The notes beneath the pieces are model-generated. The model was not told the DNA's origin, searched no databases, and saw only the letters and a list, made by a program, of their open reading frames with translations. Position numbers and translations under genes: made by a program. Shown one piece after another: positions 55,002 to 64,000 of a stretch of 64,000 bases of DNA; within the stretch, counting starts at the first letter, position 1, and the number at the start of each line of letters is the position of its first letter. The DNA lies in assembly GCA_050246755.1 (NCBI GenBank), contig JBFWVL010000007.1, forward strand, positions 39,155 to 103,154, in the 5' to 3' direction. Source of the stretch: Bacteriovoracia bacterium. GTDB taxonomy: Bacteria > Bdellovibrionota > UBA1018 > CAIPTA01.

Positions 55002-56297
55002 TTATTTTCGGCGCAGCTTCCGCACTACGTCTCCGCGCTCGAGGCTGCGCTTATGCGCTGAATGCACCCGCACGAAGAGGCCTTCACCGGCCGGCGCTTC
55101 ACTCACGGCGCTCTCTCCGCCCATGCTCGCCAGCAAGCGCCCAACCGCCATTTGATTCTCTTCGTCGTTCAGATTAAGCGAGCCGTCTTTTTCGCGCGTC
55201 TTGGGTGCGGCCACCACCGTCTCCACCGGTTTTTTGTCCAAGGTGGTGGCAACGGGGCTCGCGGACACATCAGAGTCGGCAGCGGCTAAAGCGGCCGCGA
55301 GCGCAAGGATCTCGGGATCCTGGCTGCCTTCATTTTCCGCGAGGAAATTTTCCAGTTTTTCGCGTAGGCTCGCGTCTTTCACCAGCTGCGCGATTTTTTC
55401 ATTGCCCGACGCCTTCAGCAGGGCCTTGATATCCGTATCTGCTACCGCACCTATTTTTTCATTGCCGGATTTTCCCGCGCGGTCGATGGCCTTATCCTTA
55501 TCGCCGGCGAGCAAGTTTTTATTTTTGCTCACGTCCGACGCATCGCCGTTTCTGGTGGAGGATGTATCCCATTTTTCCTTCAGTCCGTACTCGGGAGAAT
55601 CAGCGTAGGAGAAAAACTTTGCGGCCATCAGCGGATCTTTTTTTCCGGGAGCCTTATAATATTCCACGGCTTCCGCGTGGCGCTGCTGCCGCTCCGCCAT
55701 CATGGTCTGCAGCTTCACCGCCTCGGCAAAGGCCACCTGATTTTCGGCGGCGGCTTTGGCTTGCAGCGAATCTAACGAGGCGGAACGTATCGGCTCTACC
55801 GGTGCGGGCGCTTCTTCCTGGGCGGCTATTTCTGGCTCCGTTTCGGTGGCGGTAGACGTAGCGGTCTGAGTGGAAGTAAGGACGGGCGTCGTGGAAGAGC
55901 TGGTTTGCGTAGTGGTGCTTGTCGGCGTAAAGCTGCTGGTATAAGTGGAAGTACTGGGGTGAGTAGGGCTGCTCGTGTGAGTACTAGAAGAAGTACTGCC
56001 ATGCGAGCTGGTACTCGTATGGGGACTGCTACTGGTCTGAGTGCTCGTCGCGTTACTGCTGCTTGAGGACGATACGAGCTGGAAATTAGGCGAAATGCAA
56101 TAACTTGGTTCGTCGCCGGTGCTCATGCATTTCGGGTAGTACTGCTGGCAGGCGGACGAGCTCGAAGATGAATACGTCTTGCCCGTAAGGTCGGTACAGG
56201 TCCACGCCGAGAAAGCCGTGAGCGGAAACAGCGCGTTCGCCGCGGCCGCTACCAGCACGATTCTTCGGCGCAGGATATTTGGCAGTTCGTGCATCAT
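55002..56297 (-). CDS. Secreted protein with a small 4-Cys head, a Ser/Thr/His-rich stalk and a helical C-terminus
   Basis: Signal peptide (Arg-rich n-region), low-complexity S/T tract of about 80 aa. Confidence 0.75.
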   Translation of the reverse strand: MMHELPNILRRRIVLVAAAANALFPLTAFSAWTCTDLTGKTYSSSSSSACQQYYPKCMSTGDEPSYCISPNFQLVSSSSSSNATSTQTSSSPHTSTSSHGSTSSSTHTSSPTHPSTSTYTSSFTPTSTTTQTSSSTTPVLTSTQTATSTATETEPEIAAQEEAPAPVEPIRSASLDSLQAKAAAENQVAFAEAVKLQTMMAERQQRHAEAVEYYKAPGKKDPLMAAKFFSYADSPEYGLKEKWDTSSTRNGDASDVSKNKNLLAGDKDKAIDRAGKSGNEKIGAVADTDIKALLKASGNEKIAQLVKDASLREKLENFLAENEGSQDPEILALAAALAAADSDVSASPVATTLDKKPVETVVAAPKTREKDGSLNLNDEENQMAVGRLLASMGGESAVSEAPAGEGLFVRVHSAHKRSLERGDVVRKLRRK

Positions 56298-56302
56298 TTG
56301 AA

Positions 56303-57046
56303 TTATTGTCCCACCGCTTTAGCCATATCGTCCCTGGAAGGAATACTGCCTTGAGAAGGAGCATATACCTTGCAGCCAATCGCATTAGCTGCGCATGCGA
56401 CGGGTGAAATAGTCGGGTCGTCGGATCCGATTTGGTTACCTGAGGCGGGAGCTCTTCCGTTCATGGTGCTATCTGAATGATTGCTTTCTCCTTGGTTCGC
56501 GGCAAACGCGGCGGGAGGAGGCGCTATGGTCTGATCACCGGTTCTCGGCGACGCTATCGTTTCTTCGTCATTGCCGAGCAGCACCTTATTGCCCGTAATA
56601 GAGCTGAGCGCCACTTGGCCTTCGCCGGCCGCATTCATCATGCTTTCGTGGGCACTGAGCGCCTTTTGGTCGATCGTATTTCCCGCGCCCACGCAATTCG
56701 CCTGGGTCGTGCAATCGATCTGGCTTACGCTCATGATCTCGTTGCGGGCCGTTTGCTCGGCCGCATCGTAACTCTGCGCAACCGCGCGCATGTTTTCGTA
56801 AGTGGTCACGCAACGGGGGGCCTTGCCAGGTAAACCGTTTTCATTTGGCCGATCCACCATGTCGATTTTGCCGGCGATCGAAGCCGCGCAGCGCTGGCTG
56901 ATCTCTTCGTCCGTAAGAGCGTAGGCTCCCACCACCGCATCACCCTCCGCTCCGTGCGCGGGCTGAGCCGTGCCGGCGTAAACGCAGATGGTAGCGATTA
57001 AAATACGTTGAAACGCAGAAGCTGGCTGTGAGCGTACGTACCGCAT
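56303..57046 (-). CDS. Secreted hypothetical protein with paired cysteines
   Basis: Signal peptide (..PAHG), three Cys pairs; 5 bp from the downstream gene. Confidence 0.7.
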   Translation of the reverse strand: MRYVRSQPASAFQRILIATICVYAGTAQPAHGAEGDAVVGAYALTDEEISQRCAASIAGKIDMVDRPNENGLPGKAPRCVTTYENMRAVAQSYDAAEQTARNEIMSVSQIDCTTQANCVGAGNTIDQKALSAHESMMNAAGEGQVALSSITGNKVLLGNDEETIASPRTGDQTIAPPPAAFAANQGESNHSDSTMNGRAPASGNQIGSDDPTISPVACAANAIGCKVYAPSQGSIPSRDDMAKAVGQ

Positions 57047-57197: not shown

Positions 57198-57550
57198 GGG
57201 GGTGACCTGGTTTCGACAGGGTCAAGAAGCCCGTTCGTGCACGTCGTGGTGCCATCAGGCCACGTTAAACCGGTGGCATTTGTTATTCGGCAACGAATAC
57301 GCACTTGCAGCTTAATTAGTTAAGCAGCACGAGTACCCTGGGTTTGCCCATGCATCCGGGAGTGCTCGTTATGTTCATGGGATAGGGTAGTGTTGCTGGC
57401 ATGCCGGCATTACTCGAAACTTTAGTAGGCTTCGCTCGGGAGTAATTTGTGCGTAGATGCCTCCCGAGTAAGAAAAAATACGTACTAAACGTGTAGTTCG
57501 GCGGCGTAGACAGACTTTGGACGTGGGTTCGATTCCCACCACCTCCACCA
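57198..57550 (+). ncRNA. ssrA: tmRNA (SsrA), tag peptide (A)GNEYALAA
   Basis: 5' GGGGGTGACCTGGTTTCGAC, tag ORF GGCAACGAATACGCACTTGCAGCTTAA, 3' GTGGGTTCGATTCCCACCACCTCCACCA. Confidence 0.97.
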
Positions 57551-59378
57551 ACTTAAGACTTGGAAGAACCCCCGTCCGGGGCTCTTCCAGGTTGATTTCC
57601 CCTTTTTTCCCGCCTTTAGATTCTGAGCCCTTTCGGTCAAAAAGATCGGCGTCGGCCTGCCCATAATATTGGGCATGTATCTTATTCTTGCCGACGGTTA
57701 TGCGGTGAACGAAGCCGTCGATTAGTTCCCTTTGCTCAAGCGGGGTTAGCCTATCGAATTCGTTCCGGTTGAAGATTTGGAGATATTTAAACACGAATTG
57801 CATATCTACCAATTGGTTCGCGCTCTGAGCTTCGGCTTCAAGGGCTTTGAGTCCAGCGATAGCAGCCTCTTTTTTTGATTCAAGCTTTTGCAAGCTTTCA
57901 AGAAGGCCGTCTGTGGGGAAATCTTTAGGTAGGCTTGCGATCCGTTCTGCTAAATTACTGATCTTCGACTTGGTGTCCGAGATCTCCGCCTTTTTAAGCT
58001 CTATGAGCCTTTCGTTGTTTTGTGTGCCATGGCCCATTGTCCGTTGGCTATCCTTGGCAATTTGAGCCGCGAGCTTCGGATCTTTGGCAAGAAGGCGTAT
58101 CCTCGCAAGCATGGTTGATTCCAGCTCTAAGGCAGGGATGCGCTCAAGAGGGCAGCGCTTGGTGTGGGCGTCGTTCTTGTTGGTGAATTTTCGATTGTGC
58201 CCGTAGTAGTAATGTACTTTGTTGCGGCCAGTAGCAGACTTTCCAACTAGGCTTTCTCCGCACAGCTCGCAAAATGCTTTCGTAGAGTAGGCATAAACGT
58301 GCCGGTATTTGCGGAGAGTTTTCGCATTTTTCTCTAAGCGCTCCTGGACGGTACGGAAAACTTCGGATTGTACTAAGGCAGGCCAAACGGCTTTGGCAAC
58401 CCGATATCGTTCATGGGGCTCAAGATCCTCCTGATGAGCTGAGCGTTTGGCTTTATTGAATTCGCGGAGGCCCAGGTATGTCTTATTGGTAAGTAAAGAC
58501 AGTAGCGACGAATGAGTAAACTCTTTACCTCCATGATGTTCACCTTTCTTAGAAACATATGCTTTGGTGCGATAGCCTTTGTTATTTAGCCATGTCCTCG
58601 TTTTTTCCACGGTCCCAAGTTCAAGGAACTTTTCGAAAATCAGTTTAACCACAGGGCGCTCGGCGTCGTTCACCACAAGATAGTTTTTGCGATGAGGGTC
58701 AATATCGTATCCTAGGCAGCGCTGGCTTCCCTGAGAAAGCCCACGCTCAGCCCGGGCGCGCGCTCCGTAACGAATCCGCTCAACGATGGAATTTCTCTCA
58801 AATTGCGCGAAGCTCACGCTTTGAATGACCATCATTTCACCGATGGCAGTAGACGTATCAAAGTTCTCTTTAAGGGAGAAAAATTTTCCATTGTAGCGCT
58901 TAAGGAATTCCCAAAACTGCAAAAAGTCCTTCACGTTACGATTTAGCCGGGAAAGTTCCGTGACGATCACGCCATTGATGTGGCCTGATTTTATGTCGGC
59001 GAGCATACTTAAATATGCGGGGCGGTTCATGTTCTTTCCTGACATGTCTTTGTCTTCGTACTTTTCTACAATCGTTCCCCAGTCGGGCGTCTGGAGATTT
59101 TTGTGTTTAACGTACTCCTGAATGCGCTGGGGATGGGAAATCAAAGAACCCTCATCGCGGACTTCGTCGCTTGGCGAGAGACGAATGTACATACCGAGGC
59201 GGTACTGAAACTTATTTTCTGAGGCGCTTTTCAAGGTCTTCCGAGATTTCTTCGAAGATCGCCCCGCTTTCATCCACTCCTCGATTTGAAATGTCTTTTC
59301 CATCTGGTCGGCCTCGTCTTGAGGTGAGATCGCGGTAGATCCTGATGATGCTTTCCGAGAGTTTTTGGATTCGTTCAT
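57375..59378 (-). CDS. Large serine recombinase (integrase); the C-terminus is read antisense through the 3' half of tmRNA
   Basis: YIRLS catalytic motif, SGKNMNRP, ELSRLNRN, AQFERNSIVER, recombinase domain, CELCG zinc ribbon, coiled coil; the start may be the downstream MEKTF. Confidence 0.93.
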   Translation of the reverse strand: MNESKNSRKASSGSTAISPQDEADQMEKTFQIEEWMKAGRSSKKSRKTLKSASENKFQYRLGMYIRLSPSDEVRDEGSLISHPQRIQEYVKHKNLQTPDWGTIVEKYEDKDMSGKNMNRPAYLSMLADIKSGHINGVIVTELSRLNRNVKDFLQFWEFLKRYNGKFFSLKENFDTSTAIGEMMVIQSVSFAQFERNSIVERIRYGARARAERGLSQGSQRCLGYDIDPHRKNYLVVNDAERPVVKLIFEKFLELGTVEKTRTWLNNKGYRTKAYVSKKGEHHGGKEFTHSSLLSLLTNKTYLGLREFNKAKRSAHQEDLEPHERYRVAKAVWPALVQSEVFRTVQERLEKNAKTLRKYRHVYAYSTKAFCELCGESLVGKSATGRNKVHYYYGHNRKFTNKNDAHTKRCPLERIPALELESTMLARIRLLAKDPKLAAQIAKDSQRTMGHGTQNNERLIELKKAEISDTKSKISNLAERIASLPKDFPTDGLLESLQKLESKKEAAIAGLKALEAEAQSANQLVDMQFVFKYLQIFNRNEFDRLTPLEQRELIDGFVHRITVGKNKIHAQYYGQADADLFDRKGSESKGGKKGEINLEEPRTGVLPSLKLVEVVGIEPTSKVCLRRRTTRLVRIFSYSGGIYAQITPERSLLKFRVMPACQQHYPIP
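57561..57589 (+). terminator. Hairpin just 3' of tmRNA, inside the integrase coding region
   Basis: TGGAAGA-A-CCCC / GGGG-C-TCTTCCA followed by a pyrimidine-rich tract. Confidence 0.55.
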
Positions 59379-59472
59379 TATTTTCTTCCTCAGTTAGAAC
59401 AAATAGGGATTCTTCTAATTCGATAGACCGGCACTTTTCTGCATGGGTTCGCAATCGTCGGATTGCACCCAT
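59212..59472 (-). CDS. Small helical protein overlapping the integrase 5' end
   Basis: GGAGG RBS immediately before the ATG; protein-like charged helical sequence. Confidence 0.5.
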   Translation of the reverse strand: MGAIRRLRTHAEKCRSIELEESLFVLTEEENNERIQKLSESIIRIYRDLTSRRGRPDGKDISNRGVDESGAIFEEISEDLEKRLRK

Positions 59473-59498
59473 TTTGCCTCCACGTATCTAGGGCGTTT

Positions 59499-59726
59499 TC
59501 ATTTCCTGGCTCCGTAGGCTTGCAGCTTGGCTAAAAATTTCTTTGCATCTCTTTCGGGCAAGCTGTTCAGAAATAAAACTAATCGGCGAATTGTCTCGGA
59601 AGGCATCCTAGCTCCAGCCTCCCACCTATACACCGTTAGTCTCCCTTGAACACCGAGCGCCTTCGCTAAGTCTTCTTGGCTTAGGCCGAGTCTTTCTCGT
59701 AGTCGTAAAAATGCCTTTTCGCTCAT
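59499..59726 (-). CDS. XRE-family helix-turn-helix protein
   Basis: LRERLGLSQEDLAKALGV...TVYRWEAG.RMP. Confidence 0.9.
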   Translation of the reverse strand: MSEKAFLRLRERLGLSQEDLAKALGVQGRLTVYRWEAGARMPSETIRRLVLFLNSLPERDAKKFLAKLQAYGARK

Positions 59727-59816
59727 CCCTTATGTATTCCATTGGACTACTTTAGGCTGCAAGAGAAATCGCTGAAAACAGTGCTGGGTGTTTGAGCGCA
59801 GCACCGCACATGTCCG

Positions 59817-60158
59817 CTACTCCTTGTCTTTGGTGCGCAAGACCGGCCCCGAAGGGGCCGACCGCTGCCGCTGTAGAACGGGGGTAAGAAGGTCTTGGAC
59901 GATCAGGGGCGCGTTGGTTTTCTTCGCTTCCTTGAGCTGCCTAACCACTGACTCTAGGTGGGCGATCTCGTCAAAGTGGTCCCCCCGGATTTTTTCGATT
60001 TGCTTGGGGGTCATGGACACGCAAGAGTTTATGAGCAGCCAAGAGGCGATCTGCCCTTTAGTGATTCGGCCCGGAATTCCATCGTTCACCTTTCTATACA
60101 GGCTATCCACGGATTGGTCAGCGGCGAGGGTTATAGCGATTTTCGGAAGTTGCTCCAT
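59817..60158 (-). CDS. Hypothetical protein (possible DNA-binding protein of the element)
   Basis: RBS AAGGA, 113-aa ORF co-oriented with the XRE and integrase genes. Confidence 0.6.
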   Translation of the reverse strand: MEQLPKIAITLAADQSVDSLYRKVNDGIPGRITKGQIASWLLINSCVSMTPKQIEKIRGDHFDEIAHLESVVRQLKEAKKTNAPLIVQDLLTPVLQRQRSAPSGPVLRTKDKE

Positions 60159-60177
60159 ATGTTTCCTTTTAAAATGA

Positions 60178-60197
60178 GGGGCGGCGCAAGCCGCCCC
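60178..60197 (-). terminator. GC-rich hairpin after the P-type ATPase gene
   Basis: GGGGCGGC-GCAA-GCCGCCCC. Confidence 0.65.
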
Positions 60198-60203
60198 GAA
60201 GGG

Positions 60204-62456
60204 TTAGCAGTTGGAAAACACGTAGACCTGACTGTTGTGAGGTACGAAAGTATAAGCTTTTATCCGCAAGAGCCGCAGGGAATTGAAAATCACCAGAAGC
60301 GAAGCACCGGTGTCGGCGCCGACGGCTAGCCAGAGATTTGCGAATCCCAGAAAAGTAAGCACCAGGAAGGCCGCTTTTAGTAAAATGGCAAAACCGATAT
60401 TGAATCGGATCACGGAGAGCGCCCGGCGGCCTTGCTTGATCGCAACTACTACTTGCTTCAGATCATCTCGCATCAGAGCCACATCGGCCGTTTCGATCGC
60501 CGTATCGGTACCGATACCGCCCATGGCAATTCCCACGGAGGCTTCTGCTAGCGCTGGCGCATCGTTGATTCCGTCCCCGATCATTGCCACCACGCCATAT
60601 TTTTGAACGAGGCGCTTCATTTCCGAAACTTTTCCTTCGGGAAGTAGATCTCCGATGGCTTCCGATATACCGGCCGAGCTAGCTATCGCTGTTGCCGTTC
60701 GTTGATTATCGCCACTCAGCATAATCATGGATTCAATCCCGGCGTCTCTTAGTTCCTGAACCGCTTGCTTTGCGTCCTTCCGTATCACGTCACCCACTGC
60801 CAGGATGCCCAGTACCTCACCTTTGCAGCCAGAATGGGGGCGATGACCGACCACAATTACCGATAGAGATTTCTCTTCTAAGCCCGCGAGTTGCTTTTCG
60901 AGCTCGGGAGTACAAACCCCAAGCTCATGGGCAAAGCGATGGTTTCCGAGAAAGTATTCGTGTCCTTCAATTTTGGCTTCTGCGCCTTTCCCCAGGATAT
61001 TTTTGAAATCCGTGGCGGGCTTCAATGGGATCGATAACCCCTCGGAATAGCGCACCACCGCCACGGCCAAAGGATGCGAAGAGAGTTTTTCCACCGAGGC
61101 CGCTACTTGAACCACATTCTGCTCCGTAGCGTCGCCGATAAGAATTACCTGGTGGACAGTAGGGGTGCCTTCCGTGATCGTGCCGGTTTTATCTACGGCG
61201 ATTGCTCTTACTTTGCCCAAAATCTCCAAAAATGCGCCGCCTTTTACCAGAACACCCTTCCTCGCAAGAGCGGTCAACGCCGAAACGATGGATACTGGAG
61301 TGGAAATCACCAGAGCACAAGGGCAAGCAACAACAAGCAGCACCAACGCTTTATAAAACCACACGCTCCACTCCTGATGAAAAGCGAGTGGGGGAACTGC
61401 AAGAGTTAGAATGGCTAGTACGAAAACTGCGGGGGTATAAATTTTCGCAAAGGAATCTACGAAACGCTCAGAGGGAGCCTTTTGTCCCTGCGCTTCCTCC
61501 ACCATGCGGATGATCTGCGCAACCTTGGAATTTTCGGAAGAAGAGGACACGAGAATTTCCAAAACACTCGACTCGTTAATTGTTCCAGCGAATACGTTAT
61601 CGCCGACCTTTTTTTCAACCGGTGCCGATTCACCAGTGAGTGCCGCCTGATTTACGTAGGACGTTCCATTTTTGACCACTCCATCCATAGGAATTCGCTC
61701 GCCGGATTTTACGAGAATCAGAGATCCGATCACGATGCTTTCGGTCGCGATCTCGCTATGCTTTCCCCTAGAATCAATCAAGGTGGCTGTTTCGGGAGTG
61801 ATGGTGAGCACTTCCCCAATGGCTTTCCGGGCTCTAGCCACGCTAAGAGCTTCCAGCAGTTCTGAGAGGGAAAACAAAAATACAACCGTTGCAGCTTCCG
61901 TCCATTGGCGGATTCCAACCGCGCCTAAAACCGCGACACTCATCAGAACGTTCATGTCCAAGCTTCGTTGTACAAGGGAGCGCCACGCTTTTGGAAAAAC
62001 TAGTGAACCACCAAAAAGCACTGAGGCCCCGCTGAGAGCGGCGGTAACACCCAGGCTGCTCCCCATGCTTTCGGCCCCGAACGCAAGACCGGCGAAGACT
62101 CCTGATAAAAGTACGAGAGCAACTCGTCGCTTATCTGTCGTCTGAACGCCCTTGTCCGGATTTGCTACTCTCACTCCAGTTGACTCGATCTTTTTGCGGA
62201 TTATATCGCTGGAGATTTCCCTGGAGTGCTGAACCTTTACGGTAGAAGCCATCAAGTTAGCCTGAATTTGGCCCACTCCGGGAATAGCTAATGCCTGTTC
62301 AATTGCTTTGATTTCGTCGCCGCAATCCATGCCTGCCACGAGAAATGAACTTATCAGAGTGTTCGGATCACTCTTGAATTCCCGAGGTGGAAGAGTGGCA
62401 GCCGGGTGAATATGGTCATGCCCGCAGCAGTCATCCTTGTGGCCTGGTTTATTCAT
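60204..62456 (-). CDS. zntA: Heavy-metal (Zn/Cd/Pb) P1B-type ATPase, ZntA/CadA-like
   Basis: His/Cys-rich N-terminus, GMDC HMA domain, TGES, CPCALVISTP, DKTGT, GDGINDAP. Confidence 0.93.
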   Translation of the reverse strand: MNKPGHKDDCCGHDHIHPAATLPPREFKSDPNTLISSFLVAGMDCGDEIKAIEQALAIPGVGQIQANLMASTVKVQHSREISSDIIRKKIESTGVRVANPDKGVQTTDKRRVALVLLSGVFAGLAFGAESMGSSLGVTAALSGASVLFGGSLVFPKAWRSLVQRSLDMNVLMSVAVLGAVGIRQWTEAATVVFLFSLSELLEALSVARARKAIGEVLTITPETATLIDSRGKHSEIATESIVIGSLILVKSGERIPMDGVVKNGTSYVNQAALTGESAPVEKKVGDNVFAGTINESSVLEILVSSSSENSKVAQIIRMVEEAQGQKAPSERFVDSFAKIYTPAVFVLAILTLAVPPLAFHQEWSVWFYKALVLLVVACPCALVISTPVSIVSALTALARKGVLVKGGAFLEILGKVRAIAVDKTGTITEGTPTVHQVILIGDATEQNVVQVAASVEKLSSHPLAVAVVRYSEGLSIPLKPATDFKNILGKGAEAKIEGHEYFLGNHRFAHELGVCTPELEKQLAGLEEKSLSVIVVGHRPHSGCKGEVLGILAVGDVIRKDAKQAVQELRDAGIESMIMLSGDNQRTATAIASSAGISEAIGDLLPEGKVSEMKRLVQKYGVVAMIGDGINDAPALAEASVGIAMGGIGTDTAIETADVALMRDDLKQVVVAIKQGRRALSVIRFNIGFAILLKAAFLVLTFLGFANLWLAVGADTGASLLVIFNSLRLLRIKAYTFVPHNSQVYVFSNC

Positions 62457-62480
62457 ATCAATTTGCCTCGCCTTGTATAA

Positions 62481-63410
62481 TCACACGACATTATCTGGTT
62501 CCAGATGGCAGCCAGAGGCGTCTTTTGCCGTTTCAATTTGAACAGTAGAGTGGTGAATCTTAAAGTCGTGATCCAGTTGCTTGGATAAATTTTTTAAAAA
62601 CTCGTCGCCCGGATGACCGGACGGCATGTGCAAGTGCGCAGTAAGTGCGTTTTCAGTCGTGCTCATTGGCCACACGTGCAAATCATGAACGGATGAAACC
62701 CCTGGCTGGGTCTCTAGAAAAGTTTTCAGTTTTTCCAATTCAATTCCTTCCGGGACTCCCAAGGTAATTAGATGCAATGAATCTTTGAGCAAGCGCCAAG
62801 TGCCAAAAAGGATTACCAAACTAATGGCCAGGCTAATTGCAGGATCAAGCCAAATCCATCCAGTTTTTAGGATAAGAAAACCAGCTATCACCACGCCAAG
62901 AGATACTGCCGCATCAGCTGCCATATGAAGGTAGGCTCCCCGAATATTAATATCGCCCTTACGGCCCGACATAAAAAGGAGAGCAGTGGCAGAATTAATT
63001 ACGATACCAATTCCCGCCACGACTATTACGGTTCCGCCAGCAACCGGCTCTGGGTGAGAAAGCCGACCAATTGCTTCCCAGGCGATCCCGCCGATAGCAA
63101 CCAGAAGGAGCAGGGCGTTCGCGAGCGCCGCAAGAATGGAAGTGCTTCGAAACCCGTAGGTGTAGTGCTTTGAGGGTTTTTTATTGGAAAGCCAAATTGC
63201 TCCCCAGGCCAAGGCTAGCCCCAGAACGTCGCTCAGATTGTGCCCGGCATCTGCCATAAGCGCCAGTGAGTGAGAGAGGTACCCGTAAATGCCTTCCACC
63301 AAAACAAAACCAAAATTCAGCGCGATCCCCACGGCAAAGGCAAAATTATAGTTTGCGGGCCCGTGCGAGTGCCCGTGAGGATGGCCGGCATGATCGTGGT
63401 GATCGCTCAT
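62481..63410 (-). CDS. czcD: Cation diffusion facilitator (Co/Zn/Cd efflux)
   Basis: His-rich N-terminus, SLALMADAGHNLSD, NIRGAYLHMAADA, VHDLHVW, HSTVQIE. Confidence 0.93.
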   Translation of the reverse strand: MSDHHDHAGHPHGHSHGPANYNFAFAVGIALNFGFVLVEGIYGYLSHSLALMADAGHNLSDVLGLALAWGAIWLSNKKPSKHYTYGFRSTSILAALANALLLLVAIGGIAWEAIGRLSHPEPVAGGTVIVVAGIGIVINSATALLFMSGRKGDINIRGAYLHMAADAAVSLGVVIAGFLILKTGWIWLDPAISLAISLVILFGTWRLLKDSLHLITLGVPEGIELEKLKTFLETQPGVSSVHDLHVWPMSTTENALTAHLHMPSGHPGDEFLKNLSKQLDHDFKIHHSTVQIETAKDASGCHLEPDNVV

Positions 63411-63446
63411 AATTTTCTGCTCCAAATGTCGTTAGGACTTTAAGGA

Positions 63447-63495
63447 GTATACCCCCATACCCCTTATTGACAAGTGCTCGGCAGGGGAATAGTTT
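63447..63495 (+). promoter_or_regulatory. CsoR/RcnR-type operator and sigma70 promoter
   Basis: GTAT-ACCCCC-ATAC dyad around a C-tract (63447-63460); TTGACA-N17-TAGTTT (63467-63495). Confidence 0.6.
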
Positions 63496-63502
63496 GAATG
63501 AA

Positions 63503-63781
63503 ATGGCCCACAAAAAACACGCTCATGAAGACAAGCAGGCGCTCAAAGTAAGGGTTCGAAAGATTGCAGGCCAGCTCAAGGCCATTGAACAAATGATTGA
63601 GGAAGATAGTGAGTGCCCCGATATTCTCACGCAGGTGGTTTCTGCTAGGAGAGGCTTAAAATCATTTGCGGAAAAGTTGATGCAGGAGCACATGCATCAT
63701 TGCATTTTTGAAGCAGAAAAAGATCAAAGCAAAAAGGGACTAAAGAGCCTTTTGGAAGTGCTAGAGCGGTACGTGGAATAA
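63503..63781 (+). CDS. CsoR/RcnR-family metal-sensing repressor
   Basis: R.RKI.GQ..AI..M.EED.EC.DIL.QV.SAR.GL...EH.HHC; divergent from czcD-zntA. Confidence 0.93.
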   Translation: MAHKKHAHEDKQALKVRVRKIAGQLKAIEQMIEEDSECPDILTQVVSARRGLKSFAEKLMQEHMHHCIFEAEKDQSKKGLKSLLEVLERYVE

Positions 63782-64000
63782 GCGCTTCGAAAAAACACAA
63801 TCGCATGAACGTGTGTATACGTATAAAAATTCTGAAGTATCGGTTTGCCTACGCGGTAGACTGTCCCATTCCGGAGACATGTTAAAATCGGTTGCAGTAT
63901 CTAGCGAAACAAAACACTCAATTGCGCCTTTCAAATGCCGATGGTATTCTAAGATGGTGAAAAGACTTTTAGCATTCTTCCTCGTTATTGCAGCACTGCT

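Follow-up and report, generated by a model that had tools for sequence, protein, structure and literature searches.

The 64,000-nt stretch of contig JBFWVL010000007.1 analysed here (called 'the window'; Bacteriovoracia bacterium, assembly GCA_050246755.1) carries a transfer-messenger RNA (tmRNA) gene, the 3' end of which is overlapped on the opposite strand by the gene of a large serine recombinase (LSR). This arrangement probably represents attL, the left-hand junction of a ~19.3-kb metal-efflux island, the LSR of which belongs to a clade that inserts at the 3' ends of tRNA and tmRNA genes and splits its own gene in doing so. The overlapping features are (window positions, strand):

57198-57550, plus strand: tmRNA gene (ssrA), tag GNEYALAA (ARAGORN; Rfam RF00023, 175 bits, full-length match)
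57375-59378, minus strand: LSR open reading frame (ORF), integrated form, 667 aa (ORF listing and Pfam)
57375-57550, minus strand: tail and stop codon of the LSR, from the antisense of the 3' part of the tmRNA (58 codons plus stop)

The LSR ORF contains no stop codon ahead of the CCA end of the tmRNA. Residues 1-609 are encoded by the element, and residues 610-667 come from the antisense strand of the tmRNA (ORF listing and sequence): codon 610 (TTG) straddles the terminal A of the tmRNA, and codons 611-667 together with the stop codon are the reverse complement of its last 176 nt. The read-through of 58 antisense codons (57550-57375), the starting point of a preliminary description of this DNA, was confirmed by the ORF listing, ARAGORN and Rfam, and the tmRNA gene is the predicted target of the element (the attB side). 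Pfam assigned the protein a Resolvase catalytic domain (PF00239, 2.3e-29, residues 63-213), followed by Recombinase (PF07508, 5.2e-17, residues 240-351) and Zn_ribbon_recom (PF13408, 4.2e-06, residues 365-428), the latter two both past the curated cut-offs. R66, S68 and R144, as well as the zinc-ribbon cysteines C370, C373 and C409, were invariant in an alignment of 14 LSR sequences (A1), and S68 is the putative catalytic nucleophile. By its catalytic domain, its Recombinase and zinc-ribbon domains and its short attachment (att) sites, the protein would be a member of the LSR class.

Related loci were collected by scanning one genome per species with the LSR family alignment as query, which gave 38 loci, nearly all in metagenome-assembled genomes (MAGs) labelled Bdellovibrionota, Oligoflexia, Bacteriovoracaceae and similar. 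At 26 of these, the 3' end of the LSR gene overlapped a tRNA gene (14 loci: Pro, Ala, Met, Val, Ser, Arg) or a tmRNA gene (12 loci) in antisense, and none of the 26 LSR genes had a stop codon before the CCA. Another four loci had a tRNA-antisense-like tail with no RNA gene called (three of these four being cut by a contig end), one was complete and had no tRNA, and seven were cut or partial and thus uninformative. Antisense overlap was also found at 8 of 12 loci from relatives of the genome itself, which are partly on the same contigs as the 38. The missing stop before the CCA is therefore not due to chance, recurring as it does at 26 of 26 related loci with a called tRNA or tmRNA, and the expectation that homologous LSRs would adjoin such genes and read through them held for 26 of the 38 loci. 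The nearest proteins in a set of 5.8 billion all end in ...GV(L/R)PxFxLVExxGIEP..., a peptide that results when a tRNA-type acceptor plus T-arm is translated in antisense. A genome scan with the single LSR protein as query gave no match, the family alignment found no relative in IMG/VR, and the best LSR identity in phage and plasmid collections was 29%.

The same genome carries a second LSR of this kind (C6:165594-167504), which reads fully through tRNA-Arg(tct); the element concerned (G000:C6:135,322-167,504, loci L026 and L027) has its far end ~32 kb off, with an in-phase extension ORF of 174 aa and a 10-bp inverted repeat. In another genome (G007:C20, 2884-36120, loci L016/L017), a tmRNA with an antisense LSR faces a tRNA-Leu(caa) with an antisense LSR, 33 kb apart. 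At locus L013 (G008:C82), the tmRNA 3' end (16-18 nt) is directly repeated (2297-2312 and 2574-2589) 265 nt downstream of the gene, probably as what is left, by way of scar or remnant, of another element with a long core (tyrosine-type).

The contig of the window (C7) ends at window base 64000, and its last 127 nt matched, at 100%, only the reversed right end of contig C3. The low GC content of the island (0.46-0.52) runs ~17.5 kb into C3 before returning to 0.55-0.59 beside a tRNA-Arg(tcg) gene. A second att site beyond 64000, as the preliminary description had foreseen, was found at G000:C3 ~309,682 (L023:7060-7089), where TGGTGGAG is the antisense of the last 8 nt of the tmRNA and is followed, after 10 further bases, by a perfect 13-bp inverted repeat of window 57558-57570. 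The island would thus span ~19.3 kb, from window position 57551 to C3 ~309,682. Its left junction comprises the following features:

57543-57550, plus strand: attL core CTCCACCA, 8 nt, recurring at the far end in antisense as TGGTGGAG (L023:7060-7067)
57551-57578, plus strand: P' arm (att site), located in the coding part of the LSR gene
57551-64000: the part of the island within the window, GC 0.47-0.52 against 0.55-0.59 in the flank

The far end was located through a comparison of genomes G061 and G062, which pointed to the far-end ORF described below. Searches of the assembly and related contigs for a copy of at least 12 nt of the tmRNA 3' end found none (blastn-short; fuzzy patterns from 12 nt exact to 26 nt with 4 mismatches), and they failed because the true repeat is only 8 nt; motif scans for the far-end att arm gave no usable match. 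With its 8-nt repeat the island falls outside the Islander definition (a tRNA gene (tDNA), a displaced tDNA fragment and a tyrosine integrase), and Pfam revealed no tyrosine integrase among the 29 ORFs scanned in the island region.

Both junctions were mapped for five elements, and their phase and cores were compared (element, target, shared core, perfect inverted repeat):

Window: tmRNA, 8 nt, 13 bp
G000:C6: tRNA-Arg, 4 nt, 10 bp
G061: tmRNA, 3 nt, 13 bp
G035: tRNA-Ser, 7 nt, 14 bp
G006: tRNA-Pro, 7 nt, 6 bp

The inverted repeats flank a centre of 20-36 nt in these elements, and the CCA comprises the only bases common to both ends in all five. For this reason the crossover, placed by the shared cores alone, most likely falls within the terminal CCA (window 57548-57550). 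Beside it, window 57558-57570 is one half of the perfect inverted repeat (13 bp), the other half being in the P arm of the far end, and 57566-57577 (GAACCCCCGTCC) mimics, in inverted form, the T-arm of the tmRNA at 57519-57530 (GGACGTGGGTTC), with a match at 11 of 12 positions; at locus L041 the mimicry is 12 of 12. Across 28 aligned junctions, the DNA block following the CCA was conserved, reading A(A/T)TTGAA..., then (A/C)CGAAC, four positions that vary and G(T/A)CC. It copies, inverted and imperfectly, the part of the target that comprises variable loop, T-stem and T-loop. Arms matched the T-arm of their cognate target at 6.22 of 9 positions and non-cognate T-arms at 5.51 of 9, a result reached by 2 of 10,000 permutations (42 of 10,000 for tRNA loci alone), the significance of which is overstated since the loci are related and not independent. 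Two sub-clades preserve the block and differ in the frame in which they read it (GVRPxFxLV vs SPVVQIGGGG), which points to a constraint on the DNA and not on the protein alone.

Immediately inside the far end lies an intact ORF of 159 aa (L023:7059-7538, corresponding to C3:309,681-310,160). In all five mapped elements the far-end ORF (150-175 aa) is open straight from the junction and in the same phase as the LSR (chance ~0.004): the T of the antisense TGG takes the same codon position in the LSR and far-end frames in five of five, and that position differs between elements. In G061, scripted joining at the CCA put the LSR in frame with a far-end ORF of 151 aa that contains no Met at all. Uninterrupted proteins consisting of an LSR and the extension also exist, namely P0121 (730 aa) and P0122 (731 aa), which were obtained by a profile search with the extension (two LSR fusions among five matches); a single-sequence search for longer proteins holding the extension found none. 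The extension of P0122 is 67% identical to the far-end ORF of G000:C6, beginning at the first post-junction residue. Frame continuity in five of five elements and the two natural fusions both place the att site inside the integrase ORF, and the gene of the LSR seems to extend across attP and to be divided when the element integrates. The mapped junctions bear out the proposed tie of the LSR to the tmRNA 3' end with an att site inside the integrase gene. The in-frame far-end ORFs likewise fit the proposal that integrated and excised forms would encode different C-termini, with one amendment: translated across the rebuilt attP, the tail would differ, yet what replaces it would be not just another short tail but a conserved extension of ~159 aa.

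The LSR body of P0122 is only 30% identical to the LSR of the C6 element, which suggests that modules may be exchanged at the att site.

Members of the extension family turned up in 22 of 61 related genomes, and ten far-end ORFs aligned well (alignment A2). In Pfam, the extension corresponds to HTH_23/24 plus the N-terminal half of Recombinase, and its profile matched, among PDB sequences, the helix-turn-helix (HTH) regions of resolvases and transposases and the start of the recombinase domain (RD) of the A118 integrase (E 4e-4). An AlphaFold2 model of the extension (pLDDT 78.6) had only LSRs (Bxb1, A118, phiC31) as its best Foldseek matches, with weak E values (0.0075-0.05) over 80-86 columns at 2.1-2.7 A. 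The extension thus looks like a second, putative DNA-binding module, composed of an HTH and a recombinase-domain-like part.

These data are consistent with the following course of events. In the circular form, attP would sit inside the recombinase gene, and the ORF would cross it into the C-terminal extension of ~159 aa, giving a protein of ~768 aa. With the crossover in the encoded CCA, the RNA gene would stay whole, the element supplying at most the last base or two of the RNA along with a new hairpin terminator. Integration would split the integrase gene, such that the catalytic, recombinase and zinc-ribbon domains remain at attL, where the tmRNA antisense strand provides them with a stop codon and a tail devoid of meaning, while the extension is stranded at attR, 19 kb off. 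Within this scheme, the exact crossover, the continued activity of the window copy and the effect of losing the extension are inferred only. A further step, which we put forward tentatively and regard as possible though short of likely, is that the state of the DNA sets the isoform: the circle alone would encode the ~768-aa integrase, and the severed module would act as a switch for directionality, or as a lock, without a classical directionality factor. The system would then be a bacterial counterpart, of the serine type, to the 'suicidal' integrases of archaea, and could be redirected among tRNA and tmRNA genes via its T-arm-mimicking arms.

Several observations weigh against the interpretation as a self-splitting island. 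The symmetry centre of the inverted repeats lies 1-3 nt off the CC, on the acceptor side. A search of 40 of the 46 kb of G007:C20 (which has two LSRs) and of 20 of the 48 kb of G026:C25 gave no homologue of the extension, and three same-contig pairs of LSR and extension (G022:C1, G014:C12, G055:C30) have a geometry that does not fit. An ATG arises at the junction in three of nine far ends (window, G035, G055), making a separate extension protein possible. A block of 61.6 kb shared at 99.96% identity by G061 (L071, L068, L067, L032) and G062 (L072, L070, L069, L033), and containing an LSR of the clade, takes in the whole tmRNA (0 mismatches) and stops within 2-3 nt of the tmRNA 5' end; a crossover in the CCA does not account for this co-transfer, which is unexplained. 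The tmRNA-LSR-cargo arrangement of the window recurs in a ~95%-identical strain in a run from another study (X3 record 18, a 30,856-nt contig bridging the junction). Finally, the contigs of four runs showed no excision joint or loose end at 57548-57552, and neither a circular form nor an empty site of the window element was seen among contigs, in which rare forms are invisible.

Loose contig ends did occur at 57519 and 57552, and these look like tmRNA genes of other organisms with the same T-arm. Synteny with genomes of the same genus gave no empty site either, as the flanks are not syntenic. Since the same arrangement is present in X3, the island appears to be stably inherited, and the window copy may no longer be mobile. 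A stronger version, in which the copy is a fixed relic with a decaying LSR and tail and the island is by now ordinary chromosome, could draw on this conserved order, on the lack of circular or empty-site contigs and on a truncated AcrB gene beside the far end. We consider it rather unlikely, given that the LSR ORF is intact with its R66, S68, R144 and zinc-ribbon cysteines invariant, and that the att arms (13-bp perfect inverted repeat, 8-nt core) and the extension ORF are intact as well.

The far-end ORF might instead be an independent gene, for a regulator or directionality factor, with its frame matching that of the LSR by coincidence and the LSR borrowing the stop codon of its target. The junction ATGs and the occurrence of the extension family in 22 of 61 relatives would suit such a gene, and gene callers would indeed see a stand-alone protein of 150-190 aa. 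It is nevertheless improbable: the frames agree in five of five elements despite a differing phase of the LSR relative to the CCA, the ORFs are open from the junction, the G061 copy lacks any Met, and the fusions P0121 and P0122 join the two parts.

As to the origin of the RNA gene, near-identical elements adjoin differing RNA bodies, which argues that it is the host's own, as far as sequence comparison goes. Loci L058 and L059 have LSRs of 96% nucleotide identity with identical P' arms, and tRNA-Pro bodies that diverge from position -8 upward; L031 and L032 have LSRs of 98% amino acid identity, and tmRNAs that are only ~67% identical. No displaced tmRNA fragment was found in five genomes, each with a single tmRNA. 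The alternative, in which the element carries the 3' part or the whole of the tmRNA, the crossover falls deeper or at the 5' end as with tyrosine-integrase islands, and the tail is partly element-encoded, would be favoured by the G061/G062 block spanning the whole tmRNA; elsewhere (random 8-kb piece) these two genomes are 70-74% identical, and one edge of the block is an abrupt stop at a tRNA-3'-end-like sequence finishing in CCA. Moreover, the 3' third of the window tmRNA is, by eye, closer to that of another genus (G008) than to same-genus copies. Set against the single tmRNA per genome with no displaced fragment, the cores of 3-8 nt and the host-specific RNA bodies of L031/L032 and L058/L059, this alternative seems very improbable.

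The tail in the window is best seen in relation to its relatives. Random stretches of 58 codons are open in an estimated ~6% of cases, and the open length of the tail is compatible with chance. Among the 26 relatives, the tail after the CCA ranges from ~3 to ~240 codons, and the antisense frame used by the tail holds stops in four of seven related tmRNA genes; for both reasons the long tail is not a conserved feature, and given its variable length it looks like a by-product of integration. That the 176-nt overlap is regulatory, with the tmRNA pairing with the integrase mRNA and cleavage yielding a non-stop message, the tagging of which by tmRNA locks the element in, as the preliminary description had it, found no support and is extremely unlikely: the overlap is real, convergent genes could pair in principle, and the nearest homologues P0001, P0002 and P0004 (97%, 77% and 70% identity) retain the tail, but its retention follows from tmRNA conservation, the tail length varies widely, tRNA-targeting members overlap their target by just 13-90 nt, and tmRNA has a high degree of structure and is bound by proteins.

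Within the LSR coding sequence, next to the tmRNA, lies one further element of the junction:

57557-57593, plus strand: hairpin, then a T-rich tract, a candidate replacement terminator for the tmRNA

The hairpin noted earlier within the ORF is real, folding at -23.5 kcal/mol (z = -2.8; 1 of 200 shuffles as stable) and being followed by TTGATTTCCCCTTTTTT; as a terminator of the tmRNA it is only a candidate, not having been called by a simple terminator scan. A strict script found a hairpin and T-run at 8 of 26 junctions, a crude count given that more look terminator-like by eye, which suggests that the element may bring a new terminator for the RNA gene. At many loci, the bases of the conserved att block form the 5' arm of the hairpin.

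The remaining island genes in the window are as follows:

59499-59726, minus strand: XRE-type HTH protein of 75 aa, a short way upstream of the LSR (Pfam HTH_3)
60204-62456, minus strand: P1B-type heavy-metal ATPase, cargo (Pfam E1-E2_ATPase, Hydrolase, HMA)
62481-63425, minus strand: cation diffusion facilitator (CDF), cargo (Pfam Cation_efflux, ZT_dimer)
63467-63781, plus strand: CsoR/RcnR-type metal-sensing repressor, cargo (Pfam Trns_repr_metal)

Further cargo of the island comprises an RND pump with an outer-membrane factor, a patatin-like protein and a YkuD-domain protein. The truncated RND-pump gene (AcrB; L023:7797-8663 on G000:C3), inside the far end beside the extension ORF, covers the first 276 of 1021 positions of the ACR_tran profile. 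Summed contig depth jumps at window 60421-60821 in all four runs (X1: 70 vs ~20), probably reflecting a P-type ATPase motif common to many organisms of the metagenome. Between the far end and tRNA-Arg(tcg), the 3' end of which faces this DNA, lies a low-GC stretch of ~4.8 kb (L023:2243-7058, G000:C3 ~304,865-309,680) with genes for an HTH protein, an AAA-like protein and an MqsA/SocA-type antitoxin and none for an integrase; this stretch lies outside the island and may be a remnant of another. On the host side of ssrA, two ORFs (431 and 247 aa; window 55002-57046, minus strand) have no Pfam match, the first containing long Ser/Thr-rich low-complexity runs.

Genes for tRNA and tmRNA have long been considered targets of tyrosine integrases only, and here a whole clade of serine enzymes appears to use their invariant CCA end. 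Self-splitting integrases have been said to occur in archaea only; this would be a bacterial, serine-type case. Since the repeat is only 3-8 nt, such elements will be missed by island finders that seek a displaced tDNA fragment, and gene callers will show the integrase as a chimera and the extension as an orphan 'HTH protein'. The two natural isoforms would allow a direct test of the extra DNA-binding module in integration versus excision, and in this genome the element would explain the ~19-kb metal-efflux block by ssrA.

The window LSR has the same domain order (Resolvase, Recombinase, zinc ribbon) as the known LSRs A118/LI, Bxb1, phiC31 and TP901-1, and resembles them in its short att sites, imperfect inverted repeats and very short core, and in the match of the extension fold to the LSR recombinase domain. 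It differs from them in an identity of at most 29% (phage and plasmid collections searched), in its predicted tRNA/tmRNA CCA target, in an attP inside the gene and in an extra C-terminal module, HTH plus RD-like, that integration would remove. A search of the text of a large LSR survey gave no occurrence of 'tRNA' (Durrant 2022, PMC10083194), and according to the Islander paper (PMC4383910) no serine integrase is known to use tRNA genes as its target. Serine enzymes at tRNA genes are described as rare, with phiRSM1 (tRNA-Ser 3' end) and Mycobacterium AICEs (integrative elements of actinomycetes that are also conjugative; tRNA-Leu) named as cases (Ghinet 2011, PMC3218068). Compared by description only, phiRSM1 uses a small resolvase-like enzyme, and neither a split integrase gene nor a tmRNA target is mentioned in the passages of PMC3218068. 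Closer in design are the serine integrases of streptococcal integrative and conjugative elements (ICEs) in rumA, which have the att site in their own gene and change the sequence and length of their C-terminus upon integration, and which have been likened to Mx8 (Ambroset 2016, PMC4701971). They share with the window LSR the serine type, the att site in the gene and short repeats, whereas their target is a protein gene, the 3' end of which is also exchanged; here, in a different phylum, the RNA gene would stay intact and a conserved module of ~150 aa would be lost.

In phage Mx8, attP lies within the integrase gene intP, and integration swaps the C-terminal part of IntP for a short tail, giving a modified form that is described as less active (PMC4701971, PMC4383910). 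The Mx8 enzyme belongs to the tyrosine recombinases and its identical core is long, in contrast to the serine recombinase and the 3-8 nt core found here. The analogy with Mx8 drawn in the preliminary description is apt and the enzyme is of the serine type, but to call it the first such version would be too strong, with phiRSM1, the Mycobacterium AICEs and the streptococcal rumA ICEs in print. Integrases of the SSV type target tRNA genes. In these 'suicidal' integrases the site lies inside the gene, which integration fragments, a strategy that, according to a review, only archaea use (Badel et al. 2021, PMC8371274). They are archaeal tyrosine recombinases, whereas the present enzymes are of the serine type, come from bacteria (MAG relatives) and keep all canonical LSR domains on the attL fragment; the window LSR would therefore resemble 'suicidal' integrases in its working without being one of them. 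Full-text searches of the literature found no account of a serine integrase split at a tRNA or tmRNA CCA end. What appears to be new here, judged from comparative sequence data, is an LSR element with the combination of a target at the CCA end, arms that mimic the T-arm and an integrase gene that would split itself and lose a DNA-binding module upon integration.

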